Assembly (NCBI GenBank): GCA_945860125.1
Contig: CAMAPQ010000002.1
Location: 1-62,855, forward strand
Length of the DNA stretch: 62,855 nt
From: Klebsiella pneumoniae
GTDB lineage: Bacteria > Pseudomonadota > Gammaproteobacteria > Pseudomonadales > CAMAPQ01
Direction: 5' to 3'
Under the pieces are notes generated by a model that saw only the letters and a list, made by a program, of their open reading frames with translations, ran no database searches and was not told where the DNA came from. Both the position numbers and the translations under genes were made by a program. This document shows, one piece after another, positions 20,249 through 61,007 of this stretch (positions are counted from its first letter, which is position 1; every line of letters begins with the position of its first letter).

Positions 20249-21625
20249 ATGAATACAGTACAGCCTCATAAGCTTCATTATATTGGTAAGTACCAAATTA
20301 TTGGTGAGCTAGGTCGGGGCGCTATGGGCGTAGTTTATCGGGGTTTTGATCCTGATATTGGTCGATATGTTGCAATTAAGACGCTTCATGCGCATATATT
20401 AAATACCCCAGAAGGAAAAGAGTGCCTGCTTCGTTTTCATAATGAAGTCAAAATTACAGGTTGTTTTAATCATTCAGGTATTGTTTCGATCTATGAATTT
20501 TTAGTTGACCAAGATATTCCTTATTTTGTAATGGAATATGTTGAAGGCAAAGAGCTTAAAAAAGTACTACTTTCAGGAAAGAAATTTAAATGGCAAGAAG
20601 CACTTGTTGTGATAACAAATCTGCTAGATATTTTGATTTATGTGCATAAAAAAGGCGTTATTCACCGAGATATAAAGCCTGCAAACATTTTTTTGATGGA
20701 AGAGGGTGGTGTAAAGCTAACAGATTTTGGTATTGCGCATACCGAGTATTCTGATTTAACACAACTGGGTAGTATTTTAGGTACACCTAATTATATGTCG
20801 CCAGAACAGTGTCTTGGTTCCTTGGTAGGTTATGGTTCTGATTTATTTTCAGTTGCAGTTGTCCTTTATGAAATGATGACGGGTATGAAACCTTTTACAG
20901 CAAATGAAACTGAGCTAATCATGCAAAGAGTGGTCATGCTGTCACCAAAATCTTTCGATTATTATTTGGTTCATCTGCCCAGAGGATTAGAAAAAGTACT
21001 ATTTAAGGCGCTTGATAAAAACTTTGAAAAACGGTTTTCTTCAGCTGCTGACTTTAAGGCGCATTTAGATCATTTTCTCGTGAAAAAGCCGCTTTTTAAA
21101 AAGCCTTTTTTAAGCCTTTTTCTTGTTACATCTAGCTTTATTCTTTTTTTTCTCATATTCATTTTGTTTCTTTCTCTCTTTGAGGGCAGGCATTCATTAA
21201 GTCTTTTTTCAAGATTAGATGAGCCTGTTGAAAATTATATAAAGCAGCAAGTGGGTAGTACGTTTACTAATACTCAGGCGATCTCTTCGCCTAGTCATTA
21301 TTCTCAAGCTCAACACTCCTATCGTGAAAAAGTAAAGCGTCTTTTGAAGGTTGCAGAAGCACATTTTCAGATGGAGCGTTTACTCTCACCGCCAGGGAGT
21401 AATGCTTATGATGCTTATCAGCTTGTATTAGAAATTGAGCCTAATAATAAAGCAGCAAGTGAAGGTTTAGTAAAAGTTCAGCAATTTTATATTAATAAAG
21501 TTGAGTTTTTAATTGATCAAGGCGAAATAGAAGAAGCCAAAGCGCACATTGAAATAGCGCTTAAATTTTTCCCCAGGAACGAAAAAATTCAGGCGCTATC
21601 TAAACAATTAAGCCAATCCCACTAA
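20249..21625 (+). CDS. Hanks-type (eukaryotic-like) Ser/Thr protein kinase with TM segment and C-terminal TPR-like region
   Basis: Glycine-rich loop GELGRGAMGVVYRG and AIK Lys. Catalytic loop HRDIKPANIFL, then DFGIA and GTPNYMSPEQ. TM segment FLSLFLVTSSFILFFLIFILFLSLF. The C-terminus SNAYDAYQLVLEIEPNNKAA...ALKFFPRNEK is TPR-like. Confidence 0.85.
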   Translation: MNTVQPHKLHYIGKYQIIGELGRGAMGVVYRGFDPDIGRYVAIKTLHAHILNTPEGKECLLRFHNEVKITGCFNHSGIVSIYEFLVDQDIPYFVMEYVEGKELKKVLLSGKKFKWQEALVVITNLLDILIYVHKKGVIHRDIKPANIFLMEEGGVKLTDFGIAHTEYSDLTQLGSILGTPNYMSPEQCLGSLVGYGSDLFSVAVVLYEMMTGMKPFTANETELIMQRVVMLSPKSFDYYLVHLPRGLEKVLFKALDKNFEKRFSSAADFKAHLDHFLVKKPLFKKPFLSLFLVTSSFILFFLIFILFLSLFEGRHSLSLFSRLDEPVENYIKQQVGSTFTNTQAISSPSHYSQAQHSYREKVKRLLKVAEAHFQMERLLSPPGSNAYDAYQLVLEIEPNNKAASEGLVKVQQFYINKVEFLIDQGEIEEAKAHIEIALKFFPRNEKIQALSKQLSQSH

Positions 21626-25129: not shown

Positions 25130-25190
25130 AGACCTTATGCAAAACTGCCCCGCTTTGTTGTCGCGCTTCGTCGTATGATTTAGTTGTGCC
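25130..25190 (+). repeat. A-type element, left-half fragment (A2)
   Basis: agaccttatgcaaaactgccccgctttgttgtcgcgcttcgtcgtatgatttag matches the left arm and centre of the A consensus. The right arm is absent. Confidence 0.7.
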
Positions 25191-25273
25191 ATACCAAAAC
25201 TTTTCTAAAAAATAATTTACAACAAAAAAGAAGATCAGTTATTGTTACGTTTTAAGTGGTAAGCAACTTTAGT

Positions 25274-25374
25274 AGGATTTACGCAAAATTGCCCAGCTTT
25301 GTTATCGCGCTTCGTCGTACGATTTGTACTGCCTTCATCGCGACGTCTTGCTGGAACAATTTTGTGTAAGTCTT
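25274..25374 (+). mobile_element. A-type MITE-like element copy A3
   Basis: aggatttacgcaaaattgcccagctttgttatcgcgcttcgtcgtacgatttgtactgccttcatcgcgacgtcttgctggaacaattttgtgtaagtctt; full length. Confidence 0.8.
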
Positions 25375-27527: not shown

Positions 27528-30128
27528 CTAAAAAGAGCCCTTAACGCCTGCCATCCCACCAGAACGAAACCAGCGCGATTTTATCCACTCTAACAGTAGC
27601 AAGCTTAAAAAACCTGCAATTGCTGACACCGCCAGATCATCACCATGCAACGCTCCGAAATGAAATAATCGCTGAGCAGGTTGCCAAAATACGGCCATGC
27701 CCATCACTAAAGAGACACTCCCTAGCAAAATCCATAATGAGCGGTTAGGGCGTAAAAAAGCACGAACAAGAGAAGCATTAAATGAGCGATTCACTAAAAT
27801 AAGACCCATATTAATCAGTACCAGTGAGGTAAAAATGAGTGCGCGTAAATCAGGCTCGCTCATTCCCATACGAGAAGCGCTGATTAAAATGCTTGATAAA
27901 ATTGCGAGCGTCACAAAACCTTGCGTGACCGCCCAGATAATACGTTTAGGTAAAAGTAGGGGGCTTTTAGGATCTCGGGGTGGGCGCTGCATCGCATCTT
28001 TTTCTTCTTCCTCGGCTTCGAGCACAATAGAGCAAGCAGGATCAATAATCATCTCCAGAAAAGCAATAAGAATGGGCGTAAATATAAGCGGTAAGCCAAG
28101 AAAAAAAGGAATAAGTGCAAGCCCAGCTATGGGAATATGAACGGCGACAATAAACTCAATGGCTTTGCGTAAATTGTCATAAATTCGCCTGCCTAAACGA
28201 ATTGTTTTTACAATTGAACCGAAATCATCATCGAGAAGAACAATAGCAGAAGCTTCGCGTGCGACATCTGTGCCTCGTCCACCCATGGCAATACCAATAT
28301 GAGCCGCTTTAATGGCCGGCGCATCATTCACACCATCGCCCGTCATAGCAACCACTTCACCATTGGCTTTGAGGCTTTGAACAATACGTAGTTTTTGGTT
28401 GGGACGAATGCGTGCAAATATGGAGGTTGATTTAACTATGGCAGCAAGCTCATCATCAGACATTTTTTCAATATCATCGCCTGTTACGGCTTTTGTCGCT
28501 TCCAATCCTGCTTGTTTGCCAATGGCGCAGGCCGTAGCAGGATAATCTCCTGTAATCATCACAACACGAATACCTGCAGAGCGGCATTCTGCAATAGCAG
28601 GAGGGACGTTATCTCGTAATGGATCAGCAAAGCCGATTAAACCAACATACTCAAAGGTAAAAGCACGAAGTGTCTCAGGCAAGTTTTGTTTTTGTGATTG
28701 ATTTAAAATGCTTGATTTCGCTACCCCAAGGACACGAATACCATTGTTAGCAAGCTCATTTGCTTGTTGCTGAATTTTAATCGTCTGATCTGCTGATAGC
28801 TTACACAGCCCCATAATTGCCTCAAGCGCCCCTTTGGCATAAGCAATATCGTCATTATTATCGCCGCGCAGAATATTTGCCACAGCAAATAAATCAGGTT
28901 TAAGGCCGTAGCTGTGGATGAGTGTTTGAGACATAAATTGACTGATTATATTGGGCGCAATTTCATTTTTTGCGAGCGTATGAACTGCAATATCCATGGG
29001 ATCCATAGGCTCTCGTGCGCAGGCGCATAACGCATTTTCTAAAATGGTTTTTATTTTATCATCAGCAAGCTTTCCACCATTTTTATCCCAGCTACCTGTT
29101 TCATTTTCCATCGCAACAACGGACATTTGATTTTTAGTCAGTGTGCCTGTTTTATCCGTACATAAAACGGTTGTAGCACCTAATGTCTCTATAGCAGAGG
29201 CGCGGCGCGTGAGCACTTTAACCTTTGAAATGCGCCATGCGCCCATTGCCATAAAAACTGCGAGAACAAGTGGAAATTCTTCAGGCAGTAAAGACATGCC
29301 AATAGCAATACCGCTTAACATTGCTTCTAGCCAAGAACCACGCAGTAACCCAAATAGAAGCACCATTAAGCCGCCAGTAATGACGCCAATAATCGCAAAA
29401 ATTCGTATAAAGCCACTTATTTGTTTTTGTAGGTGGGGCTGTTCCGTTTCAATTGTTTTAAGCGCACTGCCAATTTTGCCTATTTCACTGTGGATGCCTG
29501 TGGCTTGCACGGTAGCAATACCATTCCCACGCACAACCAGTGTACCTGCAAAAATGGAAGGAAGATCTTCTCCGCCTGGCTTTAGTGCAGCCTGTTTAGT
29601 TTCGCTTTTTTCATCTGAATTTTGTGCTTGTTTTCGAACAGGAACAGATTCTCCTGTGAGGAGTGATTCATCAATCAATAGATCTTGCGATGAGCGCAAT
29701 ATTGCATCTGCGGGGATACGATCACCTTCCGCAATGACGATGATATCCTCGCGCACAACCTCTTTACTATTGATGTGAATTCTCTTTCCATCGCGAATAA
29801 CAAGCGCGCGGGGCGTGGCAAGGTTACGCAGTGTTTCTAATACATGCTCGCTACGTGATTCTTGAACAAGTGTGATCATGACTGAAAATGAAGCAAAGCC
29901 CAGTAAGAGTAGGGCTTCTAAGTGATCACCTAGTAGGAAGTAAACAATGCCGCCCCCTATGAGCAGAGCAAACATTGGTTGGCGTATGACGTTAAGTAGA
30001 ATTCTCAAAAATCCGCGTTTGTCAGTAGAAGGTAGTTCGTTATAGCCCTCTTTTTTCAGACGATTTTCTGCCTCTTGACTTGTTAAACCAAGAACAGTTT
30101 CTTGTTTAGAGGGTATATTATTCTGCAT
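27528..30128 (-). CDS. Cation-transporting P-type ATPase (P2-type, Ca2+/Mg2+-like)
   Basis: Has LTGES, the phosphorylation site CTDKTGTLT, the hinge MTGDGVNDAPAIKAAHIGIAMG, and 10 predicted TM helices. Confidence 0.88.
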   Translation of the reverse strand: MQNNIPSKQETVLGLTSQEAENRLKKEGYNELPSTDKRGFLRILLNVIRQPMFALLIGGGIVYFLLGDHLEALLLLGFASFSVMITLVQESRSEHVLETLRNLATPRALVIRDGKRIHINSKEVVREDIIVIAEGDRIPADAILRSSQDLLIDESLLTGESVPVRKQAQNSDEKSETKQAALKPGGEDLPSIFAGTLVVRGNGIATVQATGIHSEIGKIGSALKTIETEQPHLQKQISGFIRIFAIIGVITGGLMVLLFGLLRGSWLEAMLSGIAIGMSLLPEEFPLVLAVFMAMGAWRISKVKVLTRRASAIETLGATTVLCTDKTGTLTKNQMSVVAMENETGSWDKNGGKLADDKIKTILENALCACAREPMDPMDIAVHTLAKNEIAPNIISQFMSQTLIHSYGLKPDLFAVANILRGDNNDDIAYAKGALEAIMGLCKLSADQTIKIQQQANELANNGIRVLGVAKSSILNQSQKQNLPETLRAFTFEYVGLIGFADPLRDNVPPAIAECRSAGIRVVMITGDYPATACAIGKQAGLEATKAVTGDDIEKMSDDELAAIVKSTSIFARIRPNQKLRIVQSLKANGEVVAMTGDGVNDAPAIKAAHIGIAMGGRGTDVAREASAIVLLDDDFGSIVKTIRLGRRIYDNLRKAIEFIVAVHIPIAGLALIPFFLGLPLIFTPILIAFLEMIIDPACSIVLEAEEEEKDAMQRPPRDPKSPLLLPKRIIWAVTQGFVTLAILSSILISASRMGMSEPDLRALIFTSLVLINMGLILVNRSFNASLVRAFLRPNRSLWILLGSVSLVMGMAVFWQPAQRLFHFGALHGDDLAVSAIAGFLSLLLLEWIKSRWFRSGGMAGVKGSF

Positions 30129-30295: not shown

Positions 30296-31363
30296 TTAAT
30301 TACTCGTAATTGCGTTTTGAAAAAAATGAATTGTGCCTGTTTCATCTTTTTCTAATTCACAGAGATTGATACCTAAACAATGAGCCCCGTTTTCATTTGT
30401 TTTCAAAATGTCTCTAAAAATAGTTTCAGCTTTATCTAGGCTGGGTTTTTCAATTAATTCTGCAAGATTGCTGTGCAATTTTGGGAAAACGCTGTTTTGC
30501 CACTTTCGCACATTATCATTCTTTGCTTGAGACAGATCTAGTGCGAGAGAATCAATGATTGATTGAATTCGTTCTGTGAGGTCTTTTTTAACGATATCCA
30601 GAGATAAATGACTTTCATCAAAACTAGTCATTGATAAGATCATATCTTGTATTTCTATTCTAATGTTTTTGTAGTTATCATCTTTATATTCTTTTTTGAT
30701 TAAAATACCTTTATTCTGCCAGTTGCTTATGTGTCTTTTAAGCTCCTTCATCGTTTTTGATTCTTTTATGCTGGTTAATAGTGAATCTTCTGTGTTCTTG
30801 ATGCAAGATAAGGTATCATTTATTCCACCATTCCAGTGCCTGTTCCCGATGAATATATTAAACTTCAAATTATGCAAAGTATAAAACATTAAATTTTCTA
30901 AATATTGCATATCTTTCTCATTAAAATTATCACCATAGTATTGATTTAACAGTTGAGCATAGAGCTGATGAATATCTTTTTTTAAGTTGTTTTTTTGACA
31001 ATAATCTTTTAGGGCGACAATTGCTTTTTTAAAGTTACTGACCATTAGTATATGTCTTCTTGCTTGGCTGCCGTCTATCTGAATGGCTTGTGACCAAAAA
31101 ACATCCCACTGTCTTTTCATTGGTTGTAGCGATCTAATGGTTGATTCTTTTGGTGTTATGGGTTTATATAATTCTTTATATTCTCTGCATGCTTTGACAT
31201 CTCTTAATTTGTTGTCTGAAAAATCAGTGAAGGCTTCATATTCTGGTATTTTATGCGGGGATAAGTTTATTTTGCTAGAAATCATTCTGGGTGATAAGTG
31301 ATTGTGTGTCTTTGATAAAAAGCTAGAACTTCCCGTTGATAATAAAAAACAGCATGGAATCAT
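30296..31363 (-). CDS. Hypothetical protein (no recognisable domain; candidate effector)
   Basis: 355-aa ORF, Lys/Asn/Ile-rich and helical, with no motif recognised. Lies in an accessory patch. Confidence 0.4.
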   Translation of the reverse strand: MIPCCFLLSTGSSSFLSKTHNHLSPRMISSKINLSPHKIPEYEAFTDFSDNKLRDVKACREYKELYKPITPKESTIRSLQPMKRQWDVFWSQAIQIDGSQARRHILMVSNFKKAIVALKDYCQKNNLKKDIHQLYAQLLNQYYGDNFNEKDMQYLENLMFYTLHNLKFNIFIGNRHWNGGINDTLSCIKNTEDSLLTSIKESKTMKELKRHISNWQNKGILIKKEYKDDNYKNIRIEIQDMILSMTSFDESHLSLDIVKKDLTERIQSIIDSLALDLSQAKNDNVRKWQNSVFPKLHSNLAELIEKPSLDKAETIFRDILKTNENGAHCLGINLCELEKDETGTIHFFQNAITSN

Positions 31364-31512
31364 AAAAGATTAAACCTTTGGGTATATATCTAAGAAGTAA
31401 ATAAAAATTATATGTTGTATGTTATCTACGCAATCTTTTTTTTAAAGAAATATTAAATTTTTAATTTTATTTCGGTCTTTGGAAAATATCAGTAGATAAT
31501 TTAATATTCTTG

Positions 31513-31667
31513 TTTTATATCCGCTCGATTCATTTTATGAAGAAGCGTTTTCAAGTATCACTTTTTTACAATATCCACCTTCAGGAAAAATTATTTATAA
31601 ATATGCTTCATATCTTGATATACATGGTGATGATGAGTCATGTGCTTTACTTGAAGTGTCAATAATA
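31513..31667 (+). repeat. Direct repeat R1 copy 1: 5'-portion fragment of the small gene at 32781-33205
   Basis: About 155 bp, roughly 80% identical by eye to 32842-32992. It translates as [48 protein letters not shown] versus YPRDSFYEKEFSNITSLQYPSSGKIIYKYASYPDIHGDYVSCALIEVS. It is cut off by the A4 element. Confidence 0.75.
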
Positions 31668-31716
31668 GGACTTACGCAAAATCGCTCAGCTTTGTTGTCC
31701 TGCCTCGCCGTACAGC
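31667..31716 (+). repeat. A-type element, left-half fragment (A4)
   Basis: aggacttacgcaaaatcgctcagctttgttgtcctgcctcgccgtacagc matches the left half of A1. The right arm is missing. Confidence 0.7.
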
Positions 31717-31762
31717 ATTGCATGCTAGCAACATTGTTATTAAACACAAGAGGGTGTTCAAA

Positions 31763-32638
31763 ATGGAAATTCAAATAAAGACTTTTAGAGTCAAAAAAAA
31801 CGATAAGGTTAATTTAGATAGATGGCCCACTTTAATAAAGCCATTTTATGCATCCAAGACCAAATATCATGCCTTTCTTGCTGAGCAAATTAAAGAATTA
31901 AGTGCGTTGCAACAATTGCACTACGCATTTGATCGCTATTCATTATTGCTTATTTTTCAGGCAATGGATGCGGCTGGTAAAGATAGTGTTATTAAGCATG
32001 TTATGTCAGGCATTAATCCACAAGGTTGCCAAGTTTTTAGTTTCAAACATCCTAGCGCAACGGATTTAGATCATGATTTTTTGTGGCGCACCAATCAATG
32101 TTTACCAGAGCGCGGTCGTATAGGTATTTTTAATCGTTCCTATTATGAAGAAGTTTTAATTGTTCGTGTTCACCCCGAAATTTTACAGGCGCAACGTTTG
32201 CCTAATGATGCACTTAGTAGTGAAACAATTTGGAAGCAGCGTTTCAATTCAATTATTGATATGGAGAAACATCTAAACCACAACGGCACTCGTATTATTA
32301 AGTTTTTTTTGCACTTATCTAAAGAAGAACAAAAAAAACGTTTTATTGAACGTATTGATGACGTTGAAAAAAATTGGAAATTTAGTGCTGCTGATATACA
32401 CGAGCGTAAATATTGGAAGGAATATAAGCATGCTTATGAAGAATGCTTGAGTGAAACCAGTACAGAACATTCACCTTGGTATGTTGTACCGGCTGATGAT
32501 AAACACAATGCTCGTTTAATTGTGTCCGAAATTATTGTGGATACATTGAAATCACTTAATATGCATTATCCACAACTAGATGCCGTAAGGCAGCAGGAAT
32601 TATTATCCATTCGCGCAGAGTTAATGGCAGAAGACTAA
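31763..32638 (+). CDS. ppk2: Polyphosphate kinase 2 family protein
   Basis: [49 protein letters not shown]...[26 protein letters not shown] is the PPK2 Walker A/lid pattern. Start taken at the ATG at 31763 ([10 protein letters not shown]). Confidence 0.85.
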
Positions 32639-32780: not shown

Positions 32781-33205
32781 AATGGATATCGAATTATTAA
32801 TAATTTTTTTATGCTTTTGCGTGGTGCTGTATTTATTTTGCTTTTTATCCACGCGATTCATTTTATGAAAAAGAGTTTTCAAATATTACCTCTTTACAAT
32901 ATCCCTCTTCAGGAAAAATCATTTATAAATATGCGTCATATCCCGATATTCATGGTGATTATGTGTCATGCGCTTTAATTGAAGTTTCAATGCAAGATTA
33001 CGAAATGTTAACCAAAGCGATCAGTATTGATGGGAATTCTCATGAAAAAAACACGCCTTTTCTTTGTGGTACTCAAGAAAAAAAAGCTTTAACCATACCA
33101 CCTTATAAACGCTCAAAAAGAGTAGAAATAAAGTCTGGCACCGAAACAGAGTGGGGCATTTTAGAAGGTGGAAAGCTAATCTATTTTTTGTATAGTAATA
33201 CTTAG
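32781..33205 (+). pseudogene. Small hypothetical gene, possibly frameshifted (N-terminal TM ORF 32781-32867 plus body 32845-33205)
   Basis: MDIELLIIFLCFCVVLYLFCFL... stops at 32865-32867. A different frame continues YPRDSFYEKEF...GILEGGKLIYFLYSNT* to 33205. The ORF track lists only 32963-33205. Confidence 0.3.
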
Positions 33206-33359
33206 TAGAATTTGATTGGGGGGATGCTTAGAAATAATTTCTTACTGATGAAAATTAACCACACCAAAATGTGGCGATAACAAAGCTTACCACTATAATT
33301 TGGCTAATTGTCTCCTTCGTATGCATATTAAAAAGATAGAGTAAACTCATGGACAAAAA

Positions 33360-36300
33360 ATGCAATTTTTAGAAAATGGCCCAGATATCCCAAATGAATT
33401 ATTAAATGCTCATGAAGAAGGAAAAGTTATATTTTTTTGTGGTGCAGGCATTTCCATACCTGCTGGCTTACCAGAATTCAAGGATCTAGTAAAAAAAATT
33501 TATGAGGCTTTGGGCGTAGATCCATCTGTTATTGAGCAAAATTTTCAAAATGATAAGAAGTACGATGTAACATTGAATTTGTTAGAGCAGCGAGTGCCCG
33601 GGGGGCTAGTTACTGTGCGGAAGGAGTTGTTAAATGTCCTTAAGCCTAACTTGCGTCGAAAAGGGGCTATTGATACTCACGCATCTTTGTTAAAACTCGC
33701 GCATAGTCGACAAGGACTCTTGAAACTTGTTACTACCAATTTTGACCGTATTTTTGAGCACGTGATTAAACAAAGGAAACTGCCGTACCGTTCATATTCT
33801 GCGCCAATGCTTCCTATCCCCAATAATAGCTGGGATGGTTTGGTATATCTGCACGGGTTACTACCTGATAAGCATGATGACAGAGTATTAAACCAGCTTG
33901 TGGTCACTAGCGGGGATTTTGGCCGTGCTTATTTGACTGAGCGCTGGGCTGCACGATTCATCAGCGAATTATTTCGCAATTATATAGTGTGTTTCGTCGG
34001 CTACAGTATCAATGACCCGATCATGCACTATATGATGGATGCGCTGGCTGCCTCCAGAAAAACAGGCGATATACAAACAGAAGCTTATATATTGACTGAT
34101 TGCACCATTAATAATGAACATAATAAGAAAATTGAATGGGAAGCTAAGGGTGTTACACCTATTTTTTATAAAACACCATCTGAACATGATCATTCAGCCT
34201 TGCACAAAACATTAAAAACTTGGGCTGCAACTTACAGTGATGGTGTAACTGGCAAAGAGTACATAGTTACTGAATATGCGGTGACCAAACCTTCAGCAAG
34301 TACAAAACAAGATGACTTTGTTGGGAGAATGATTTGGGCGCTATCGGATGCAACGGGACTGCCTGCGAAATTTTTTGCGAATTATAATCCGGTGCCGTCT
34401 CTTGAATGGCTAGAAGATCTCTCCAAAAAGTTTTTTCAAAATATGTCAGTCGTTTCTCATGTCTCAGAAGAAAAAAAATGGGATGCAGTGATGCCACACT
34501 TAGCGCACTGGCTGACTCGGCATCTGAATGATCCTGACTTAATCGTATGGCTAAATAATCGGGGAGGCCGGTTGCATGCGGAATTTGCACGACAAATTAA
34601 TGTACAGATAAATCGCTTAACAGAGTTAATGCTCAATGAACAAACAGATGAGTTAAAAGAAATTCAAAAGAATGCCCCAAATGCTATCCCGAATAGCCCT
34701 ATGCTAAAAACATGGCACCTCTTGTTAGCGGGACAGATCACATCAGCATCAAATAAAGTTGACCTATATTTTTTAGAACACTGGATTAAAAGAGGCGTCA
34801 GTATTAGTTTCCGTTTGCAATTGAGAAGCTTGCTTGCGCCAAAGGTCAAACTAAAAAGCGGAGTAATTTTTTCAGAGGAAAATAATTCAGAGCCAACAGA
34901 AATACCAGAACATATACATCAAATTTTCAACGTTGAATTAATTCTTGCACATAATCATGCACGCTCGGTACTTAATAATTTAAATAAATATGATCATAAA
35001 TCATGGTGTCATGTTTTACCTGAACTCTTTGAAGAGTTTCAACAATTACTGCGAGATGCCCTCGATTTATTTTGTGAATTGGGTAGGGCTAATGATAAAA
35101 ACGATCCTTCTTATCGGGCACAACCATCGATTAGCAAGCATTACCAAAATCAAAATTTTGACGAGTGGACGGCATTAATTGAATGGGTGCGTGATGCTTG
35201 GTTAGCGATTTTACCGATAAACCCAGAGCGTGTGGTTCAAATTGCACAGGCATGGTATGAACTACCATATCCTACATTCAAACGCCTTGCTTTATTTGCT
35301 GCGAGTCAAGACAACCGCATATCTCCAGATCAATGGGTTGATTGGCTTCTAGTAGATCATGCATGGTGTCTTTGGTCTTACCAAACAAAACGAGAAACAA
35401 TGCGATTACTCGTGTTACGAGGTTGCCATCTGATGCCTCAAATACTGCAAAAACTAGAAGATATAATTTTATTAGGCCCACCACATGATATGTTTTTGGA
35501 AGGCTCTTCTCAAGATAAAGTGACAGCTATGATGGATTATGAAGTATGGCTGCGACTTGCTAAGCTAAATCAGGGGCAATGTATTCTAAGCGAATCTGCT
35601 TTACAAAAAATGGATAGCTTATCGGCAAAAAATCCAGGTTGGAAATTAAGTAGGCACGAGAAAGAAGAATTTTCTGGCTGGCACACTGGTTCAGGAGCCC
35701 CAGATTTTGATGATTATCGCCAAATTGATCACGTTCCAAGAAAAAGAAAGGAGATTGTTTCATGGTTAAAAGAACAATCAATAATTAAGAGACGAGATCC
35801 ATTTTATGAAAATACTTGGATTAAAACCTGTCGTACGAGATTTTTTCACTGTGCTTATGCCTTATGTGATCTCGCTAAAGAAGAAATTTTCTTACCTAAA
35901 TATTGGGAAGAAGCTGTGGGCACTTGGCGAGAAGATGGGAAAAAATTACGCTCTTGGCGATTTTGTGCCCCGTTGATACAACAATTACCTAATTTGAGAT
36001 TGAAAGAAATTGAATATGATATTGCTCTATGGTTATCAGATGTTTCTAATTCTATTTTAATTAATAAGCATGAAAGTATTTTTTTTGATTTATGTCAGCG
36101 CATACTCAATTTTCAAAGTGAAAAAAATGATAAAGCTTATTCATCACTGACTATAGCTATCAATCATTCAGTGGGTCACATTACTGAAGCTCTTTTAAAT
36201 ATTTGGTTAAAAAGAGAACCCAATGATAACGATCAATTACCCGATGAGATAAAGCGTTTTTTCAATATGCTGTGTGATACTCATGAAGTAGAGTCATTTC

Positions 36301-37097
36301 GGTATGGTAGAGAAATACTTGCATCACGCGTCATTGCGCTATTTCGAGTTGATAAGGATTGGACGCGCCAACACTTGCTACCGCTATTCAATTGGGAAAA
36401 TAGTGCTGAAGCAAAATCTGCATGGGAAGGGTTTTTATGGTCACCTCGCTTTCATTTTCCGCTACTCATTGAACTCAAAACTCACTTTCTTCATACAGCA
36501 GAAAAATATACAAAATTAGATAATAGGCATGGAGATTTTGGCCGTCAATATGCGGTATTTTTAACAAATTTTGCAATTCATTGGCCTAATATTTACTCTG
36601 ATCATGATTTTAAAACTGCGATAAGTCATTTACCTCTCAAAGGATCAGAAGAATCATTAGAAACTCTTGCACAATCATTAGAGAGTGCGCCAGTGGGAAC
36701 AAAAGAAGCCTTTTGGGAGAATCGTATCAAACCTTTCTATATAAAATTTTGGCCCAATAAATCAACAGAGTTTTTATCAGGAAAAAACTCACAATCTTTT
36801 GCTCGATTAATGATTGCATCAGGAAAAAAATTTCCAGATACTTTTTCTATGTTGAATAATTGGTTAATTCCAGTAGAAAATCCAAACTACGTTATTGATG
36901 AACTTGATCGTTCTGGATTGGCAAATCATTTTCCTCAGCAATCACTGGCATTGCTATGCAAAATCATTGACATTAAGTTCCGTTGGCCTTCGAAAGAGCT
37001 GCGCACCTGTTTAGATAGTATTCAGGAAAAAGGTTTTGGTACAGATGTTCAATATCAACATCTAAATACTTATTGGCGTAGCCTTGATAATCATTAG
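33360..37097 (+). CDS. Large SIR2-domain protein (N-terminal SIR2_2-type NADase-like domain plus about 950-aa unassigned helical region); candidate single-gene defence protein
   Basis: VIFFCGAGISIPAGLPEF is the Rossmann GAGxS motif. LVTTNFDRIFE, GLVYLHGLL (catalytic-His position), SGDFGRAY and VCFVGYSINDP follow. The C-terminal approximately 950 aa are Trp/Leu-rich with no motif I recognise. Confidence 0.75.
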   Translation: MQFLENGPDIPNELLNAHEEGKVIFFCGAGISIPAGLPEFKDLVKKIYEALGVDPSVIEQNFQNDKKYDVTLNLLEQRVPGGLVTVRKELLNVLKPNLRRKGAIDTHASLLKLAHSRQGLLKLVTTNFDRIFEHVIKQRKLPYRSYSAPMLPIPNNSWDGLVYLHGLLPDKHDDRVLNQLVVTSGDFGRAYLTERWAARFISELFRNYIVCFVGYSINDPIMHYMMDALAASRKTGDIQTEAYILTDCTINNEHNKKIEWEAKGVTPIFYKTPSEHDHSALHKTLKTWAATYSDGVTGKEYIVTEYAVTKPSASTKQDDFVGRMIWALSDATGLPAKFFANYNPVPSLEWLEDLSKKFFQNMSVVSHVSEEKKWDAVMPHLAHWLTRHLNDPDLIVWLNNRGGRLHAEFARQINVQINRLTELMLNEQTDELKEIQKNAPNAIPNSPMLKTWHLLLAGQITSASNKVDLYFLEHWIKRGVSISFRLQLRSLLAPKVKLKSGVIFSEENNSEPTEIPEHIHQIFNVELILAHNHARSVLNNLNKYDHKSWCHVLPELFEEFQQLLRDALDLFCELGRANDKNDPSYRAQPSISKHYQNQNFDEWTALIEWVRDAWLAILPINPERVVQIAQAWYELPYPTFKRLALFAASQDNRISPDQWVDWLLVDHAWCLWSYQTKRETMRLLVLRGCHLMPQILQKLEDIILLGPPHDMFLEGSSQDKVTAMMDYEVWLRLAKLNQGQCILSESALQKMDSLSAKNPGWKLSRHEKEEFSGWHTGSGAPDFDDYRQIDHVPRKRKEIVSWLKEQSIIKRRDPFYENTWIKTCRTRFFHCAYALCDLAKEEIFLPKYWEEAVGTWREDGKKLRSWRFCAPLIQQLPNLRLKEIEYDIALWLSDVSNSILINKHESIFFDLCQRILNFQSEKNDKAYSSLTIAINHSVGHITEALLNIWLKREPNDNDQLPDEIKRFFNMLCDTHEVESFRYGREILASRVIALFRVDKDWTRQHLLPLFNWENSAEAKSAWEGFLWSPRFHFPLLIELKTHFLHTAEKYTKLDNRHGDFGRQYAVFLTNFAIHWPNIYSDHDFKTAISHLPLKGSEESLETLAQSLESAPVGTKEAFWENRIKPFYIKFWPNKSTEFLSGKNSQSFARLMIASGKKFPDTFSMLNNWLIPVENPNYVIDELDRSGLANHFPQQSLALLCKIIDIKFRWPSKELRTCLDSIQEKGFGTDVQYQHLNTYWRSLDNH

Positions 37098-37208
37098 TTT
37101 TGAGAGTTATTTGTACACGCGGGAAGGAATATAGAAACAAGTTAGATTTCTCACTGCTAGGCAGCAAGCAAAGCCTGATTAGCGTTATCTTAATATGCGT
37201 TCAACTCA

Positions 37209-37233
37209 ATTGTCTCCGCATTGCGGAGACAAT
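37209..37233. repeat. Perfect 25-bp palindrome at the truncation point of the hsdR fragment
   Basis: attgtctccgca-t-tgcggagacaat: 12-bp arms around a single central base. Confidence 0.85.
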
Positions 37234-37413
37234 GTTGATATCAGCAGACTTCACCGTTTTGCGAGCACCCATATTGCCACGCACAATGACCTTGCCGTCA
37301 CGTAGTTTCACTTCTTGACGTAATTGGGTCATAGAATCCCAGCCTGCGGCTTCTATCGCAGGAAGAATAAACTTGGTGATGATGTCCGTTTCGGTTAACC
37401 GCTTTTTATCCAT
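37228..37413 (-). pseudogene. hsdR: N-terminal fragment (about 62 codons) of a second, different type I restriction R subunit
   Basis: [62 protein letters not shown] matches the HsdR N-terminal nuclease-domain start (..L.E.D...KFI.PAL..AGWD...I.EE..FT.GRI.VRG). No helicase body follows. Confidence 0.6.
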
Positions 37414-37492
37414 TTATAACTAACCTATTTAATACATAATGGGCACACCAACTTCAATCATATGCCTGTTCTTTAAATTGCAGGGGGTAACC

Positions 37493-37602
37493 TACAGCGT
37501 TGCATACTAGCAACATCATTATTAAACACAAGAGGGTGTTCAAAGTAGAAATTAAAATAAAGACTTTTAGCGTGAAGAAAAATGATACGGTTGATTTAGA
37601 TA
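37493..37602 (+). pseudogene. Degenerate duplicate of the ppk2 upstream region plus first about 20 codons (direct repeat R2 copy B)
   Basis: tacagcgttgcatactagcaacatcattattaaacacaagagggtgttcaaagtagaaattaaaataaagacttttagcgtgaagaaaaatgatacggttgatttagatag aligns with 31711-31821 at roughly 85% identity by eye. The ATG is mutated (aaaATGgaa to aaaGTAgaa). Confidence 0.75.
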
Positions 37603-37727
37603 GTTTAGTGAATTAAGTTAAGCTGCTCATTATTTGAATTAATTAGTTTTTCTGAGCTATGTGAATTATGTGAATGATGCTTTTTGCATTCAAAATTGTA
37701 GAACTGAATCTGATCCTCAATTTCTGT

Positions 37728-38084
37728 TCATGCTTTTGTCGTGCTCACCCATACTTCATGACCTTCTTGTTTCACTTGAAAGCATTGAATTATCACTTCT
37801 GGCTTCTCAAGGCAGGCACCCGTTTCAAGACAAAAATGTTGTTTATAAATAGGGGAGGCAACGACCGTTTTCCCTTTTAAATCGCCCGTTATACCGCGAT
37901 ATAATACATTTGCTTGGCTGAAAGGATCGAAATTATCAATAGCGTATAACGCATCATTTTCTAACCGAAAAATTGCCACTTGTTTATTATTCACTAAGGC
38001 ACAGGCGCCTGTTGAGGGAACAATATCCTGCAAATTACAAGCATAAACCCAATCTAACGATTTTTCTTTTTGCATGACATTCAA
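37728..38084 (-). CDS. nirD: Nitrite reductase [NAD(P)H] small subunit
   Basis: DIVPSTGACALVNNKQVAIFRLEN..LYAIDNFDPFSQANVLYRGITGDLKGKTVVASPIYKQHFCLETGAC parallels E. coli NirD. Confidence 0.88.
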   Translation of the reverse strand: MNVMQKEKSLDWVYACNLQDIVPSTGACALVNNKQVAIFRLENDALYAIDNFDPFSQANVLYRGITGDLKGKTVVASPIYKQHFCLETGACLEKPEVIIQCFQVKQEGHEVWVSTTKA

Positions 38085-38108
38085 TTTCCTATCTTATTTA
38101 TTTCAAGA

Positions 38109-40670
38109 TCAAATAACGCTTAATACATTCATTCTTTCGTGTGATTTTGCAGGACGAATTTGGCCGCGCTCTTTAACAAATACAATGTTGCTATCGGTCT
38201 GATTACTATTCACAAAATGTTTAAAGCGTTTTAATTTTTCAGGATTTTCAATAGCTGCTTTCCATTCACACTCATAGGTTGCAACAATATGCGCCATTTG
38301 TGCTTCTAGTGCTTCGCCTAGGTGAAGTGAGTCGTTACAGATCACTTCTTTAAGATAGTTTAAACCACCTTCGAGATTATCCAGCCATACTGAGGTGCGT
38401 TGTAAGCGATCAGCTGTTTTAATGTAAAACATAAAAAAGCGATCGATATAACGAATGAGTGTTTGTTTATCCAAATCAGAAGCCAGAAGATCAGCATGGC
38501 GTGGCTTCATTCCACCGTTGCCACACACGTATAAATTCCAGCCTTTTTCTGTGGCAATAATACCGACATCTTTACTTTGTGCTTCAGCGCATTCACGGGT
38601 ACAGCCAGATACCGCCATTTTTAGTTTATGAGGCGATCTTAACCCGCGATAACGATTCTCAACTTCGATAGCGAGCCCTACACTATCTTGCACGCCGTAG
38701 CGACACCAGCTATCACCTACACACGATTTAACCGTTCTGAGTGCTTTGCCGTAAGCATGACCGCTTTCAAAGCCTGCTTGGATAAGCTCTTTCCATATTG
38801 GTGGTAATTGTTCAACACGTGCGCCAAATAGATCAATTCTTTGGCCGCCGGTTATTTTGGTATATAGATTATATTTTTGCGCAACCACACCAATGGCGAT
38901 GAGTTTTTCAGGTGTAATTTCACCGCCTGGAATTCTCGGTACAACAGAATAACTACCATCTTTTTGTAGGTTGGCGAGAAAATAATCGTTTGTATCCTGT
39001 ATACCTGCGTGAGCTTTGCTTAAGACATGTTCATTCCATAGTGAGGCAAGAATTGAAGCAGTAGCGGGTTTGCAAATATCGCAGCCTTTTCCTTTGCCAT
39101 GTTTAGAAATAAGATCTTCAAAGGTTTTAATTTGCTCTAACTGAGCGAGGTGATAAAGCTGCTGTCTTGAGTAAGCAAAATGCTCGCAAATATCTTTTTT
39201 AACTTCGAGCCCCTGTTTTTCAAGCTCACGATCAAGAATTTGTTTAACAAGAGCGGCGCAACCACCACAGCTGGTGGCTGCTTTTGTGCAAGACTTTAAC
39301 TCGCTTAATTCTGTAACACCTGCGCTTATTTTTGAGCATAGTTCTGCTTTGCTTACGTTGTTACACGAGCAAATTTGTGCGCTATCTGGCAGATTATCAA
39401 CGCCCAATTTATTGCCTGAACCACCTTCTAAATCATCTGGCAAAATAAGTTGTAAAGGTTGTTTAGGAATCAACATTTTATTCAAAGCTAGTTGTAGCAA
39501 TGAACCATAATTTTCTGCATCGCCAATGAGGATGGCACCTAAGAGATTTTCGCCATTTTTATCAACGATAACTTTTTTATAAATGCCTTTTGCTTCATCT
39601 ATCACAGTATAACTTTTAGATTCGGGTGTTACGCCGTGCGCATCACCGATACTTGCAACATCCACCCCAAGTAGTTTGAGTTTCGTGCTCATGTCTGCAC
39701 CGAGAAATTCATTTTTTCCCTCGTGTAAGTGCTCAACAGCTACTTCTGCCATGCTAAAACCAGGTGCAACTAAGCCAAATATTTTCTCATTCCATAATGC
39801 GCATTCACCAATGGCATAGATGGAAGGATCGCTTGTTTGGCAATAGTTATTAATAACAATACCGCCTCTTTTGCCTATTTCAAGCCCACAGTTTTTAGCG
39901 ATATCATCGCGTGGACGAATACCGGCAGAGAAAAGAATAATATCCGCACTTAAAGAGGAGCCATCAGCAAAGACCATTTTATGGCGATGATTTTCATCAT
40001 CTTCTATTTTTAATGTATTTTTTTGTGTGTGAATTTTAACGCCTAAGGACTCTATTTTTTTGCGTAAAACATTGCCGCCTAAGTCATCAACCTGTACCGC
40101 CATAAGCCTAGGCGCAAACTCGACAACATGTGTTTCAAGCCCTAAATCTTTAAGCGCTTTAGCGGCTTCTAAACCAAGTAAGCCACCGCCGACGACGACA
40201 CCAATGCGGCTACCCTCACAAAGGGCAGATTCTTTAATCTGAATAAGATCTTCAATCGTGCGATAAACAAAAACATGAGGCCTATTATTGCCTTCAATGG
40301 GTGGCATGAAAGGGTAAGAGCCCGTAGCAAGAATCAGTGCGTCATAGGTTACACGTACGCCTGCTTCAGATAACACTTCTTTCTTTTCTCGATCAATATG
40401 CGCTACTTTATCGTTTAAATGAAAACCAATGCCCCATTCTTGATAAGTTTCAAGACTCGCTAGCTGTAATTCGGTTGCCGTTTTATCGCTAAAAAAAGCA
40501 GATAACTTAACGCGATCATAAGCGGTACGTGGTTCTTCACAAAAGCAGCGAATATCAAATTGCGTCTGTGTATCTTTCTGAATAATCTTCTCAAGAAATT
40601 TATGTCCAACCATACCATTGCCAACAACAACAATTTTTTTCTTTTGAGGGAAAAAGGAGGCGTGATTCAT
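38109..40670 (-). CDS. nirB: Nitrite reductase [NAD(P)H] large subunit
   Basis: KKIVVVGNGMVGHKF is the FAD-binding start, and a second Rossmann fold is VVGGGLLGLEAA. The BFD-like [2Fe-2S] region has CSCNNVS..., and the sirohaem/4Fe-4S cysteine cluster is SCVGDSWCRYG...VSGCTRECAEA. Confidence 0.92.
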   Translation of the reverse strand: MNHASFFPQKKKIVVVGNGMVGHKFLEKIIQKDTQTQFDIRCFCEEPRTAYDRVKLSAFFSDKTATELQLASLETYQEWGIGFHLNDKVAHIDREKKEVLSEAGVRVTYDALILATGSYPFMPPIEGNNRPHVFVYRTIEDLIQIKESALCEGSRIGVVVGGGLLGLEAAKALKDLGLETHVVEFAPRLMAVQVDDLGGNVLRKKIESLGVKIHTQKNTLKIEDDENHRHKMVFADGSSLSADIILFSAGIRPRDDIAKNCGLEIGKRGGIVINNYCQTSDPSIYAIGECALWNEKIFGLVAPGFSMAEVAVEHLHEGKNEFLGADMSTKLKLLGVDVASIGDAHGVTPESKSYTVIDEAKGIYKKVIVDKNGENLLGAILIGDAENYGSLLQLALNKMLIPKQPLQLILPDDLEGGSGNKLGVDNLPDSAQICSCNNVSKAELCSKISAGVTELSELKSCTKAATSCGGCAALVKQILDRELEKQGLEVKKDICEHFAYSRQQLYHLAQLEQIKTFEDLISKHGKGKGCDICKPATASILASLWNEHVLSKAHAGIQDTNDYFLANLQKDGSYSVVPRIPGGEITPEKLIAIGVVAQKYNLYTKITGGQRIDLFGARVEQLPPIWKELIQAGFESGHAYGKALRTVKSCVGDSWCRYGVQDSVGLAIEVENRYRGLRSPHKLKMAVSGCTRECAEAQSKDVGIIATEKGWNLYVCGNGGMKPRHADLLASDLDKQTLIRYIDRFFMFYIKTADRLQRTSVWLDNLEGGLNYLKEVICNDSLHLGEALEAQMAHIVATYECEWKAAIENPEKLKRFKHFVNSNQTDSNIVFVKERGQIRPAKSHERMNVLSVI

Positions 40671-40997: not shown

Positions 40998-42446
40998 TTA
41001 GGCCTGATAAATATAAAGTCCTTTAATATAGCTATCTAATGAATGATCAAGAATTGTTCGCGCTTCAAAACCAAATGCTTCTTGTTCTTTTAAGCTAAAG
41101 CGCTTAAGTTGATCGGCTTGTACTTTATAGCTGGGTGGTTTAATCCAGATCTCATTATTTTTTGAGAGATAGTGTTGGTTACCAATTGATTGATAAAAGA
41201 GTTTTGGTACGGGCGGCAAAAAAGGCACGAGATCAGAAAAGTGTTCAAAGCGAGCTGTTTTATCTTCTAATCCTGCTGATTGATAAAAATCAGCAGCACC
41301 TTGATCAAATACTTTAGGTGCGCCAAAACTAACCACTTTTTTAATGTCATAGCCTGTTTCATCGGCAAGTTCACAGGCGGCAAAATAGGCAAAAGCACCG
41401 CCCATTGAGTGACCTGTCAATGCAATATGTAAAGGCTCATTGCTTTCGCTTTCAATATCATCCAGTAAACTCATTAAATTACTTCGTACTTTATCAAAAG
41501 CTAATTTCATGCCTTTATGCACATTACCGCCGTAACTAGATATGTGGCATGCATCTAGATCAAGCAAAAAATCTTGAAACTTTGATGAGCCTCGAAAAGA
41601 AATAATGACGTCTTTTCCACGGTAAAAAATTAAACCACGACTACAGTCATCCTTAAAACCAAAACTTTTTATTTTAAAGCCACTCTCTAGTAACGTATCA
41701 CACCACAGTGGGAAGCAGCTTTCCATAGAATGTGTTGTATCAATGCACGCGTAAGCTATTTTAGAGAGCAAGGCTAAACCTAATGCTTTTTTATGATGAG
41801 GATCATCTTCAATATTATTCAGCACAAATTCATTCCAGTTAAACTCTCTTGCGATTTGCTTGGTAACTGTATTCCATGCTCTATCGTTTTTATGAAATTC
41901 ACTGAGTTGTTCCACTGAAAATGTTTTTAATAAAAGTTTTCTTTTAGCACTGGAAAGCTGCTGGATTTCTTTTAGCCATTCAGCGAGGTGATGTTCTTTT
42001 TCGGTATGAGGTAAGCTATCTGTATCCTGTAAGCAATAGGGTAGGTCGTCGTTTGTGTTATCACTATTTTTATTTTCTGTTTGCAGCTTTGAGATGAAAT
42101 ATTCGTTATCTTGCGTATTGTCTTGATTGTTTTTGCGTATGCTGTCTAGAGTATCTTCTTGGATAACAAACGGCCGAATAAAAGCAAGTCTTTTAAAGGC
42201 CTGTGGCGGTTGTCTGAATGTATCAAAATCATGATCGCTCATCTGAAAAGAGGAAGAAAAAGGCATACAAGGCCCTTCAAAAGAGAGGGCGGCAATTCTC
42301 CCTATGTGATGATTTTCTTGTGATGAACGCAGCCAATTTCCTGGAAAAGAAGACTGGAATCCACTGCAACCCCTACTATTAAATAGTACGGGGGGAGGAA
42401 TAAAAGCAGGTTGGTTTAAAGCAAGGCATGTATACGGTGTAATCAT
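40998..42446 (-). CDS. Class-3 (eukaryotic-type) lipase family protein
   Basis: IISFRGSSKFQDFLLDLD... and the nucleophile elbow LTGHSMGGAFAYFAA (GxSxG), followed by VSFGAPKV. The N-terminal approximately 230 aa are unassigned. Confidence 0.7.
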   Translation of the reverse strand: MITPYTCLALNQPAFIPPPVLFNSRGCSGFQSSFPGNWLRSSQENHHIGRIAALSFEGPCMPFSSSFQMSDHDFDTFRQPPQAFKRLAFIRPFVIQEDTLDSIRKNNQDNTQDNEYFISKLQTENKNSDNTNDDLPYCLQDTDSLPHTEKEHHLAEWLKEIQQLSSAKRKLLLKTFSVEQLSEFHKNDRAWNTVTKQIAREFNWNEFVLNNIEDDPHHKKALGLALLSKIAYACIDTTHSMESCFPLWCDTLLESGFKIKSFGFKDDCSRGLIFYRGKDVIISFRGSSKFQDFLLDLDACHISSYGGNVHKGMKLAFDKVRSNLMSLLDDIESESNEPLHIALTGHSMGGAFAYFAACELADETGYDIKKVVSFGAPKVFDQGAADFYQSAGLEDKTARFEHFSDLVPFLPPVPKLFYQSIGNQHYLSKNNEIWIKPPSYKVQADQLKRFSLKEQEAFGFEARTILDHSLDSYIKGLYIYQA

Positions 42447-44898: not shown

Positions 44899-45000
44899 AG
44901 GACTTTACGTAAAACTGCCCAGCTTTGTTGTCGCGCTTCGTCGTACGATTTGTACTGTCTTCATCGCGACGCCTTGCTGGAACAATTTTGCGTAAGTCCT
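44899..45000 (+). mobile_element. A-type MITE-like element copy A5
   Basis: aggactttacgtaaaactgcccagctttgttgtcgcgcttcgtcgtacgatttgtactgtcttcatcgcgacgccttgctggaacaattttgcgtaagtcct. It ends 22 bp before the alkB-like start codon. Confidence 0.85.
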
Positions 45001-52348: not shown

Positions 52349-52378
52349 GCTGTTTTTGTGATCTCATTCTTTTAGAAG

Positions 52379-52505
52379 TATACCCTTCTTTATTGGAATC
52401 ACGGTGAGGCGGCAAGCAAGTCAACCCCATGAGCATAGATAAACGATGTGATTGGGGTGAATGAGAGCTGCCAACAATGCCGTTTTTTCAAGTACGAAGG
52501 GTATA
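52379..52505 (-). repeat. B-type palindromic element copy B3
   Basis: tatacccttctttattggaatcacggtgaggcggcaagcaagtcaaccccatgagcatagataaacgatgtgattggggtgaatgagagctgccaacaatgccgttttttcaagtacgaagggtata. It lies in the sdhB-sucA spacer. Confidence 0.85.
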
Positions 52506-60995: not shown

Positions 60996-61007
60996 AACTT
61001 ATGTATC

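Follow-up and report, generated by a model that had tools for sequence, protein, structure and literature searches.

A probable divergent Dsr1 orthologue at a strain-variable defence spot of an uncultured gammaproteobacterium

Genes and repeats at the locus

The analysed DNA, a stretch of 62,855 nucleotides called the window below, contains an uninterrupted ORF of 1245 codons plus stop (33360..37097, plus strand), which starts with ATG, has a G+C content of 38% and is referred to as dsr1 here. The ATG start is confirmed, because the N-terminus of the encoded protein (MQFLENGPDIP) aligns with the family consensus MQFVANGPDIP. On the left side lie a P-type ATPase gene (27528-30128, minus strand) and an intact ppk2 gene for polyphosphate kinase 2 (31718..32638, plus strand), which is the immediate left neighbour, and on the right side lie nirD (37728-38084) and nirB (38109-40670), both on the minus strand. 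The placement of the gene between a P-type ATPase and nirBD, which an earlier note made from the sequence had given, is therefore correct.

The 5' region of ppk2 is the source of a duplication, and its second copy is found in two halves around dsr1. The left half (32838..32991, plus strand) is 86% identical to 31510-31663, and the right half (37493..37603, plus strand) is 88% identical to 31711-31821 and retains about the first 20 codons of ppk2 as a dead vestige. These halves bracket an island of 4.5 kb (32992-37492), in agreement with the duplicated borders described earlier. At the left edge of the island there is a small ORF of 71 aa (32990..33205, plus strand) that has no family match and is kept on both alleles of the site, and the variable cargo starts just past it, at about 33222/33223.

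Next to dsr1 lies the 5' remnant of an hsdR gene for a type I restriction enzyme, with 70 codons left (37201..37413, minus strand). Its aa 2-62 match profile positions 5-65 of 807 of PADLOC REase_I with E = 1.9e-23, so the dead hsdR fragment that had been noticed beside the gene is real; the matches to Pfam HSDR_N (E = 0.007) and to the N-terminus of PDB 3h1t (E = 0.83) are weaker. We also considered that the remnant might have been copied from the intact hsdR gene at 2941-6195 and rejected this, since there is no similarity between them.

Scans for promoters and terminators around dsr1 gave nothing better than shuffled sequence, and the Rfam and tRNA scans found nothing in the window. A contig scan with the lineage-specific 355-aa neighbour (30296-31363), made to find relatives with the same gene order or an empty version of the site, yielded no relative. 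As for the host, contig and protein searches with ribosomal protein S1 returned matches of 65-72% identity scattered over many gammaproteobacterial orders, and Legionella was absent from the best 120 or 80 of them. These matches do not bear out the Legionellales-like placement suggested in the earlier note, nor do they speak against it. Several eukaryote-like genes (ankyrin, Myb and Ser/Thr kinase) are present in the window, and they are compatible with a host-associated lifestyle.

The SIR2 domain and the C-terminal sensor region

The SIR2 NADase effector domain is encoded at 33360..34163 (plus strand; aa 1-268), where Pfam SIR2_2 (PF13289) matches aa 123-268 with E = 7e-22 and 78 bits, above the cut-off of 24.5. 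All the SIR2 motifs quoted in the earlier note were found again in the translation of the 1245-aa ORF, namely VIFFCGAGISIPAGLP at aa 23-38, TTNFD at aa 125-129, YLHG at aa 163-166 and FVGYSINDP at aa 212-220, and the assignment of the N-terminus to the SIR2_2 type was upheld by the Pfam search. GAGIS occupies aa 28-32, the catalytic-type Asn127 lies within TTNFD and His165 lies within YLHG. Throughout an alignment of 28 Dsr1 sequences, G28, A29, G30, S32, Asn127 and His165 are unchanged, and Asn127 and His165 pair with Asn107 and His146 of KomC, a SIR2 NADase of solved structure (8zsf).

The sensor region covers about aa 370-1245 (34467..37094, plus strand), as delimited with the Dsr1 profiles and an AlphaFold2 model. 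It contains 11.6% Leu and 3.9% Trp, with helices predicted over nearly its whole length, which fits the first description of a Trp/Leu-rich, helical-looking C-terminus. In the model of aa 255-1245 (mean pLDDT 80, pTM 0.54), the sensor would form an alpha-helical repeat or solenoid plus one beta hairpin at about aa 494-529. In models of EcDsr1, the corresponding sensor is described as a helical repeat of TPR-like, bilobed form. No further Pfam domain was detected in aa 270-1245, and this includes the nuclease, ATPase and TIR domains whose motifs the earlier note had likewise not seen there. Sequence searches of PDB, both single-sequence and profile, matched SIR2 domains alone and gave no match for the sensor. 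A Foldseek comparison of the modelled sensor with PDB found generic HEAT/ARM solenoids only (SF3B1, karyopherins and CAND1, with TM <=0.31), and the structures of Dsr1, Avs7 and DSR2 were absent among its 50 best matches.

Assignment to the Dsr1 family

To the whole protein, the NCBIfam equivalog model for Dsr1 (NF041818) assigns 1604.3 bits with a cut-off of 1400, and the PADLOC search that had been proposed as a check gave Dsr1 PDLC02183 with E = 0 and 1559 bits. The three PADLOC Dsr1 models rank alike for E. coli dsr1 and the window protein. Both profiles span the sensor: aa 360-1240 are aligned with positions 394-1263 of the 1263 positions of NF041818, and PDLC02183 is covered there from position 397 to 1271 of 1275.

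The homologue search found 4481 proteins, many of which carry the NCBI name Dsr1; the best ones are 1261-1304 aa long and 48-52% identical with 100% query coverage. By tblastn, PGAP-annotated dsr1 genes were located on plasmids of Nitrosococcus, Ralstonia, Shewanella, Pantoea and E. coli (41-50% identity). A chromosomal E. coli dsr1 (WP_048943335.1), a stand-alone gene with an integrase next to it within a prophage-like island, is 47% identical to the window protein and collinear with it end to end. The single-polypeptide layout of Dsr1, with an N-terminal SIR2 domain followed by a sensor of roughly 900-1000 aa, is also present. On these similarities, the ORF very probably encodes a divergent orthologue of defence-associated sirtuin 1 (Dsr1), which is known as an anti-phage system made of a single protein. 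Routine annotation by PGAP/NCBIfam or PADLOC would give the gene this name, and the mechanism of NAD+ depletion as well as a trigger have already been described for such proteins.

Linker deletion and altered invariant sites

The nearest relative of the window protein is only 52% identical to it. Between aa 361 and 362 (34440..34445, plus strand) there is a lineage-specific, in-frame deletion of 34 residues, and the corresponding 34-column linker block is filled in all 27 aligned homologues. In the family consensus, the missing segment starts with a DL..F motif and ends with ...LRFSLIRRPAPY..APW. It is because of these missing residues that the Dsr1 HMM matches are split into two stretches. 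Besides, the protein keeps 279 (84%) of the 333 columns that are constant in the 27 other Dsr1 proteins, and in a leave-one-out count each of those 27 retains 95-99.7% of the invariant columns. In alignment, the window protein is thus an outlier within the Dsr1 family.

The absence of the linker segment means that regulation or activity could be altered or lost, and the deletion may change the control of the SIR2 domain by the sensor. We see a small chance, worth keeping in mind, that a sub-lineage of Dsr1 which behaves unlike the characterised members is represented here. A natural deletion variant of this kind could reveal a dispensable part of the linker between SIR2 domain and sensor.

A more drastic reading is that the gene is a relic of dsr1, an open frame whose protein does not work any more, at a locus heading for loss as in sister strains. 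This would account for a deletion that is unique against the 27 aligned homologues, for a protein that is the shortest among the 120 best matches, and for the alteration of 54 of the 333 family-invariant columns, with radical changes such as W670C, P845L, R848Y, V985E and G42D. However, many other changes at invariant sites are conservative (R to K, V to I, D to E, L to I), the motifs for catalysis and nucleotide binding are preserved, and 1245 codons have stayed open in a gene of 38% G+C although its product differs from every relative at roughly 50% of the amino acids. The variation within the species bears on the same point.

Allele variation within the species

Contigs of at least four samples carry the sequence of the window protein either unchanged or with 1 residue different, which is not what a decaying gene would lead us to expect. 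Compared with the allele on other conspecific contigs, a mosaic patch of 630 bp in the sensor (34911..35540, plus strand; codons 518-727) differs by 74 nt and a 4-codon indel, and the flanks (codons 169-517 and codons 728-1245) differ by 1 nt each. The dN/dS of the divergent patch is 0.47, and not about 1 as for a relic. As judged from these sequence differences, codons 518-727 are a recombinant patch that has been exchanged between alleles of one species, an example of patch-wise recombination inside a Dsr1 sensor. If this is true, intragenic recombination could retarget a single-protein capsid sensor.

Other contigs reveal what else may occupy the site. On contig L007, from the same species with a flank that is 99.3% identical, the C-terminus of HsdS and an FRG/PDC-S15 gene are located there instead. 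On three contigs (L009, L012 and L013), foreign sequence cuts Dsr1 at codon 167, and the resulting 5'-truncated copies are without Asn127 and His165. The same foreign end adjoins nirD on contig L017, with no Dsr1 copy beside nirD. In the coordinates of the window, the foreign element is joined at 33862 and 37651. The foreign junction sequence, which may be an IS end or belong to another cassette, has no copy within the window and none in the JGI metagenome contigs. Strains of this species that have a truncated copy without the catalytic-type residues, or none beside nirD, speak for the relic reading; weighing this against the conserved motifs, the open frame and the near-identity among samples, we consider it improbable that the gene in the window is such a relic.

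With Dsr1 taken as the probable identity of the protein, dsr1 is an accessory gene at a strain-variable defence spot, and Dsr1 and the type I R-M/PDC-S15 cassette alternate as alleles at an integrase-free site between ppk2 and nirD. The hsdR remnant alongside, and the other allele with type I R-M and PDC-S15, bear out the defence-island setting that had been suggested for the gene. In the probable history of the site, an older type I R-M and FRG/PDC-S15 cassette lay in a small island, which had been inserted into the second copy of the ppk2 5' region, and dsr1 on its arrival replaced most of this cassette. The locus offers a well-resolved case of defence-gene turnover in one uncultured population, whose members carry intact Dsr1, truncated Dsr1, or type I R-M plus PDC-S15.

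Two further readings have far less in their favour than a relic. A new DSR-like defence system, with a sensor unrelated to those of DSR1 and DSR2, had been proposed in the earlier note, and the lack of a Pfam domain in aa 270-1245, of a sequence match between the sensor and any solved structure and of anything but generic solenoids by fold would agree with it. Nevertheless, it is extremely improbable, since the sensor itself is covered by NF041818, whose cut-off the whole protein exceeds, and by PADLOC Dsr1, and the protein can be aligned with that of E. coli dsr1 as far as the C-terminus. The C-terminus therefore matches DSR1, an outcome that the earlier note itself had named as refuting its proposal. 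What holds of the proposal is that a SIR2 defence protein of the single-gene type is encoded, and its novelty does not hold; by the profile matches, the defence system is one already known and not a new one. Hardly any credence can be given to a housekeeping role outside phage defence, that of a sirtuin-type protein deacylase or regulator, which the metabolic neighbours (ppk2, nirBD, P-type ATPase) might suggest. The deacylase models reach only 13 bits where their cut-offs are 221-243, conspecific contigs lack the gene or have it replaced or truncated, restriction-gene debris adjoins it, and homologues are found on plasmids and prophage-like islands.

Proposed mechanism

The protein is likely to be a SIR2 NADase under the control of an all-helical sensor, as far as its analysis by profile and model indicates. 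From other Dsr1 proteins, we infer that the SIR2 domain would be kept inactive in the resting state, and that during infection the C-terminal helical-repeat sensor would bind a phage structural protein. Binding would turn on the SIR2 domain, which would hydrolyse NAD+ to ADP-ribose and nicotinamide, and the depletion of NAD+ would halt phage replication.

This scheme has precedents in the literature. DSR1 cloned in Bacillus, which may belong to another Dsr1 subfamily, depletes NAD+ and protects against phi29 (bioRxiv 10.1101/2021.12.14.472415). A 2026 preprint (PMC12803255) reports the major capsid protein of phage ZL19 as the trigger of E. coli Dsr1, and a capsid-protein trigger may be supposed for the window protein on the basis of this one preprint, which deals with a protein 47% identical to it. 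In the same preprint (PMC12803255), the Dsr1 sensor is described as homologous to the TPR sensor of Avs7.

Comparison with known systems

Among other SIR2 proteins, ThsA of type I Thoeris has a related SIR2 domain (profile E = 3e-11, aa 13-256), and so does KomC 8zsf (E = 1e-7, aa 13-246). The likeness to both is confined to the SIR2 domain, with the ThsA profiles covering aa 12-256 only; SLOG and TIR domains are absent from the window protein and its neighbours, and no ThsB/TIR or Kom partners are encoded nearby. DSR2 of Bacillus subtilis (PDB 8k98, 8wyb and others) resembles the window protein in its N-terminal SIR2 NADase and large helical C-terminal sensor, and PMC10981675 and PMC11850899 describe it as a single-gene, NAD+-depleting defence that is activated by phage tail tube protein. 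In contrast to this shared architecture, there is no sequence relationship with DSR2 beyond GAGxS (profile E about 1, over aa 13-50 only), and the PADLOC search of the window protein gave no Dsr2 match.

Avs7 and Dsr1 are both reported to be triggered by phage major capsid protein (preprint, PMC12803255). Unlike Avs7, Dsr1 proteins including that of the window are without a STAND NTPase module by Pfam, PADLOC and NCBIfam, and the effector here is SIR2.

The closest of the known systems is E. coli Dsr1, for which EcDsr1 is WP_029488749.1 (Gao et al. 2020; PMC12803255). Architecture, length class, best PADLOC model, NCBIfam equivalog and SIR2 motifs are all alike, and in both cases a single gene is located in a mobile or variable island. 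The window protein differs in that it is without 34 residues after aa 361 and has substitutions at many family-invariant sites, and its gene differs in having no adjacent integrase and in belonging to an uncultured low-G+C gammaproteobacterium.

Assignment of the SIR2 protein to the Dsr1 family

The ORF at 33360-37097 (+) has 1245 codons and an ATG start, and its product is assigned by sequence to the Dsr1 family (defence-associated sirtuin 1), as a divergent member of a known system in a strain-variable defence site. The PADLOC search gave Dsr1 (PDLC02183) with E = 0 and 1559 bits, and the NCBIfam equivalog NF041818 (“anti-phage defense-associated sirtuin Dsr1”) reached 1604 bits, above its curated cut-off of 1400. 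Both Dsr1 profiles extend over the C-terminal aa 360-1240, aligned to profile positions 394-1263 of 1263. The earlier note had proposed a new system with a C-terminal sensor possibly unrelated to those of DSR1 and DSR2; given this coverage the proposal fails, and a C-terminus matching DSR1 makes the system a known one. Among 5.8 billion proteins, 4481 homologues were found; the best non-self matches have 48-52% identity, 100% query coverage and 1261-1304 aa, belong to many phyla and are repeatedly named Dsr1 by NCBI. Besides, tblastn against plasmids recovered dsr1 genes annotated by PGAP, with 41-50% identity to the window protein.

Translation bears out the ORF and every SIR2 motif quoted in the earlier note, namely FFCGAGISIPAGLP (aa 25-38), TTNFD (aa 125-129), YLHG (aa 163-166) and FVGYSINDP (aa 212-220), and the SIR2_2 profile search suggested there gave a significant Pfam match at aa 123-268 (E = 7e-22). 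In an alignment of 28 sequences, the SIR2 signature residues G28, A29, G30, S32, N127 and H165 do not vary. The counterparts of N127 and H165 in the solved SIR2 NADase KomC are N107 and H146, and one KomC entry was deposited as the H146N mutant. The rest of the protein contains 11.6% Leu and 3.9% Trp and is predicted to be nearly all helical, and the Pfam scan of the whole protein found no domain besides SIR2_2; composition, structure prediction and Pfam thus agree with its first description as Leu/Trp-rich and helical-looking, with no nuclease, ATPase or TIR motif in sight.

Structure of the sensor region

For aa 255-1245, an AlphaFold2 model based on 62 sequences (mean pLDDT 80, pTM 0.54) predicts an alpha-helical repeat fold that includes a single beta hairpin. 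Foldseek against PDB matched this model to generic solenoids only (SF3B1, karyopherins and CAND1, TM <= 0.31), and neither DSR2 nor Avs proteins were among the best 50 matches. PDB sequence and profile searches with the window protein found SIR2 domains only, and the profile search reached DSR2 only at E ~1, through the GAGxS motif. On these results, the sensor is not of the DSR2 type. The same PDB searches brought up no solved structure of Dsr1 or Avs7.

Divergence, linker deletion and a mosaic patch

The window protein is placed by its alignment on a long branch of the Dsr1 family. Of 333 alignment columns without variation in 27 other Dsr1 proteins, it keeps only 279, whereas leave-one-out retention among those 27 is 95-99.7%. 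A segment of 34 residues after aa 361, present in every aligned homologue, is missing, and this deletion splits the Dsr1 profile matches into two stretches. All conspecific contigs holding the whole dsr1 also encode the 1245-aa product. The main rival reading is that dsr1 is a relic; against it, the reading frame is still open, the composition is like that of the surrounding genome, and copies found on contigs of at least four samples differ by no more than one residue. For these reasons, a predicted functional gene is favoured here.

When the window dsr1 was compared with the truncated alleles on the GROS21 contigs, codons 169-517 and 728-1245 were each one synonymous nucleotide apart. Codons 518-727 (window 34911-35540) differ by 74 nt (12% nucleotide divergence) and a 4-codon indel, so that 42 amino acids are substituted and 4 inserted (dS 0.22, dN 0.105, dN/dS 0.47; the corresponding values for nirB on these contigs are dS 0.064 and dN/dS 0.06). 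Both versions have common lineage-specific departures from the Dsr1 family consensus. This stretch of the sensor is a patch introduced by recombination from a related Dsr1 allele.

Genomic context of the dsr1 site

The left neighbour of dsr1 is ppk2 (31718-32638), with a P-type ATPase gene further left, and nirD/nirB (37728-40670) lie on the right. The upstream region and first codons of ppk2 (31510-31663 and 31711-31821) are duplicated, and the duplicate is split into 32838-32991 and 37493-37603, bracketing a 4.5-kb island with dsr1. Inside the island and convergent with dsr1, there is a 70-codon hsdR 5' remnant (37201-37413, (-); PADLOC REase_I, E = 1.9e-23), with no similarity to the intact hsdR (2941-6195). 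Annotation, repeat comparison and the REase_I match therefore uphold the earlier picture of a gene between a P-type ATPase and nirBD, with duplicated bounds and a dead hsdR fragment.

Where the intact ppk2-upstream copy corresponds to the split, between its two halves, lies half (~31669-31715) of a dispersed 95-nt palindromic (REP/MITE-like) repeat, whose full copies are at 9619-9713, 25134-25228, 25278-25372 and 44904-44998. This half falls exactly within the interval replaced by the Dsr1 island in the duplicated copy, so the repeat may mark a recombination-prone spot.

The window and the ENA contig L001 also differ by 9 nt in length between 37413 and 37728, as calculated from gene offsets (23359 vs 23368). 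The difference may sit at an intergenic tandem tgtgaatta/tgtgaatga repeat (37650-37680) upstream of the nirD stop, which may then be a small variable-number repeat.

Alternative alleles in the population

The window shares 99.8% identity with ENA contig ERZ27280233 k141_2415851, and three further states of the site exist on conspecific contigs. L007 (ENA ERZ27280234 k141_1831969) follows the window to 33222 at 99.3% identity; beyond this point (L007 4942-6200, the equivalent of window 33223 onward) it carries, on the opposite strand, an FRG-domain gene and an HsdS C-terminus (E = 7e-21) where the window has dsr1. The FRG-domain protein has 352 aa, with matches to Pfam FRG and the PADLOC candidate system PDC-S15 (E = 1.5e-31). 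The source sample of L007 also contains the Dsr1 allele (L014). Since the FRG gene lies directly downstream of hsdS, and the HsdR at 2941-6195 likewise has an FRG-like tail, these data suggest that PDC-S15 travels in type I restriction-modification (R-M) operons of this species.

Four contigs (L009, L010, L012 and L013) match the window from the nirB side down to 33862, codon 167 of dsr1. L010 ends right at this junction; the other three continue with 28-53 nt of foreign sequence containing an in-frame stop, then end, and their truncated dsr1 ORF is without N127 and H165. On L017 this foreign end is attached at 37651, adjoining nirD. The end TACTCAACTAGCTCATAGAATCCGACTTTTCAAATGTCTG... is common to two island junctions in different strains, 33862 (L009, L012 and L013) and 37651 (L017), preceded by an ORF ending in ...FEKSDSMS and a stop. 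No copy was found in the window or in the JGI metagenome contigs. It looks like the end of an IS or transposon, or the product of IS-mediated adjacent deletions.

In the simplest history, a type I R-M/PDC-S15 island between ppk2 and nirD would be the older state; dsr1 would have replaced all except the first 70 codons of hsdR in the window's lineage, and would later have been truncated or removed in others. Conserved housekeeping synteny, which the earlier note had set against a defence role, was not seen, as dsr1 is replaced, truncated or removed among conspecific contigs.

Organism and other features of the window

Ribosomal protein S1 has at most 72% identity to anything named among the matches listed (Hahella, Pseudomonadales and unclassified gammaproteobacterial MAGs), which include no Legionella, and a lineage-specific neighbour gene had no relative in 185,579 species genomes. 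Several genes are eukaryote-like: a Myb DNA-binding domain protein with DUF6824 (6282-7508, (-)), a Pkinase-type Ser/Thr kinase (20249-21625, (+)), a class-3 lipase (40998-42446, (-)) and an ankyrin-repeat protein (61136-62692, (-)). Such genes would fit a bacterium living with amoebae or another host.

A second defence cluster occupies 1-6195, 27 kb upstream of dsr1. Its members are, in order, an HsdS-like ORF that runs in from the window edge and is represented by its C-terminal end, a small ORF (552-917) whose WYL/CasR-like matches are weak, AbiLi (934-2238; PADLOC E = 1.5e-104), AbiLii/RloB (2238-2921) and the intact type I HsdR (2941-6195). The last 80 residues of this HsdR are similar to PDC-S15. 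The cluster is in effect a type I R-M operon with an AbiL pair inside it. Another repeat family, with copies of 122-133 nt, is found at 9713-9836, 11984-12116, 52373-52510 and 61006-61137, and two inverted copies (97% complementary) flank a GGDEF/EAL response-regulator gene (9861-11969).

Proposed mechanism and comparison with known systems

In B. subtilis, a cloned DSR1 gives protection from phi29; NAD+ falls transiently and the culture does not collapse (Garb et al., 10.1101/2021.12.14.472415). Phages encoding NARP1 overcome DSR1, in keeping with hydrolysis of NAD+ to ADP-ribose and nicotinamide (10.1101/2024.02.11.579819). According to a January 2026 preprint (PMC12803255), the sensor of Dsr1 shares homology with the Avs7 TPR sensor, and the toxicity of E. 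coli Dsr1, for which the effector domain is required, is triggered uniquely by the major capsid protein of phage ZL19. By analogy with this work on other family members, the helical sensor would bind newly made phage capsid protein, binding would release the N-terminal SIR2 NADase, and NAD+ depletion would block phage replication.

In E. coli, dsr1 is present in 76 of 5426 complete genomes; in the one examined (FDAARGOS_1286) it adjoins a tyrosine integrase in a prophage-like island. Aligned end to end, starting at residue 1 and reaching the C-terminus, the E. coli product and the window protein are 47% identical, and the three PADLOC Dsr1 models rank alike for both. As for the linker deletion, the mosaic patch and the swapped alleles, they are typical arms-race features and do not make this a new kind of system.
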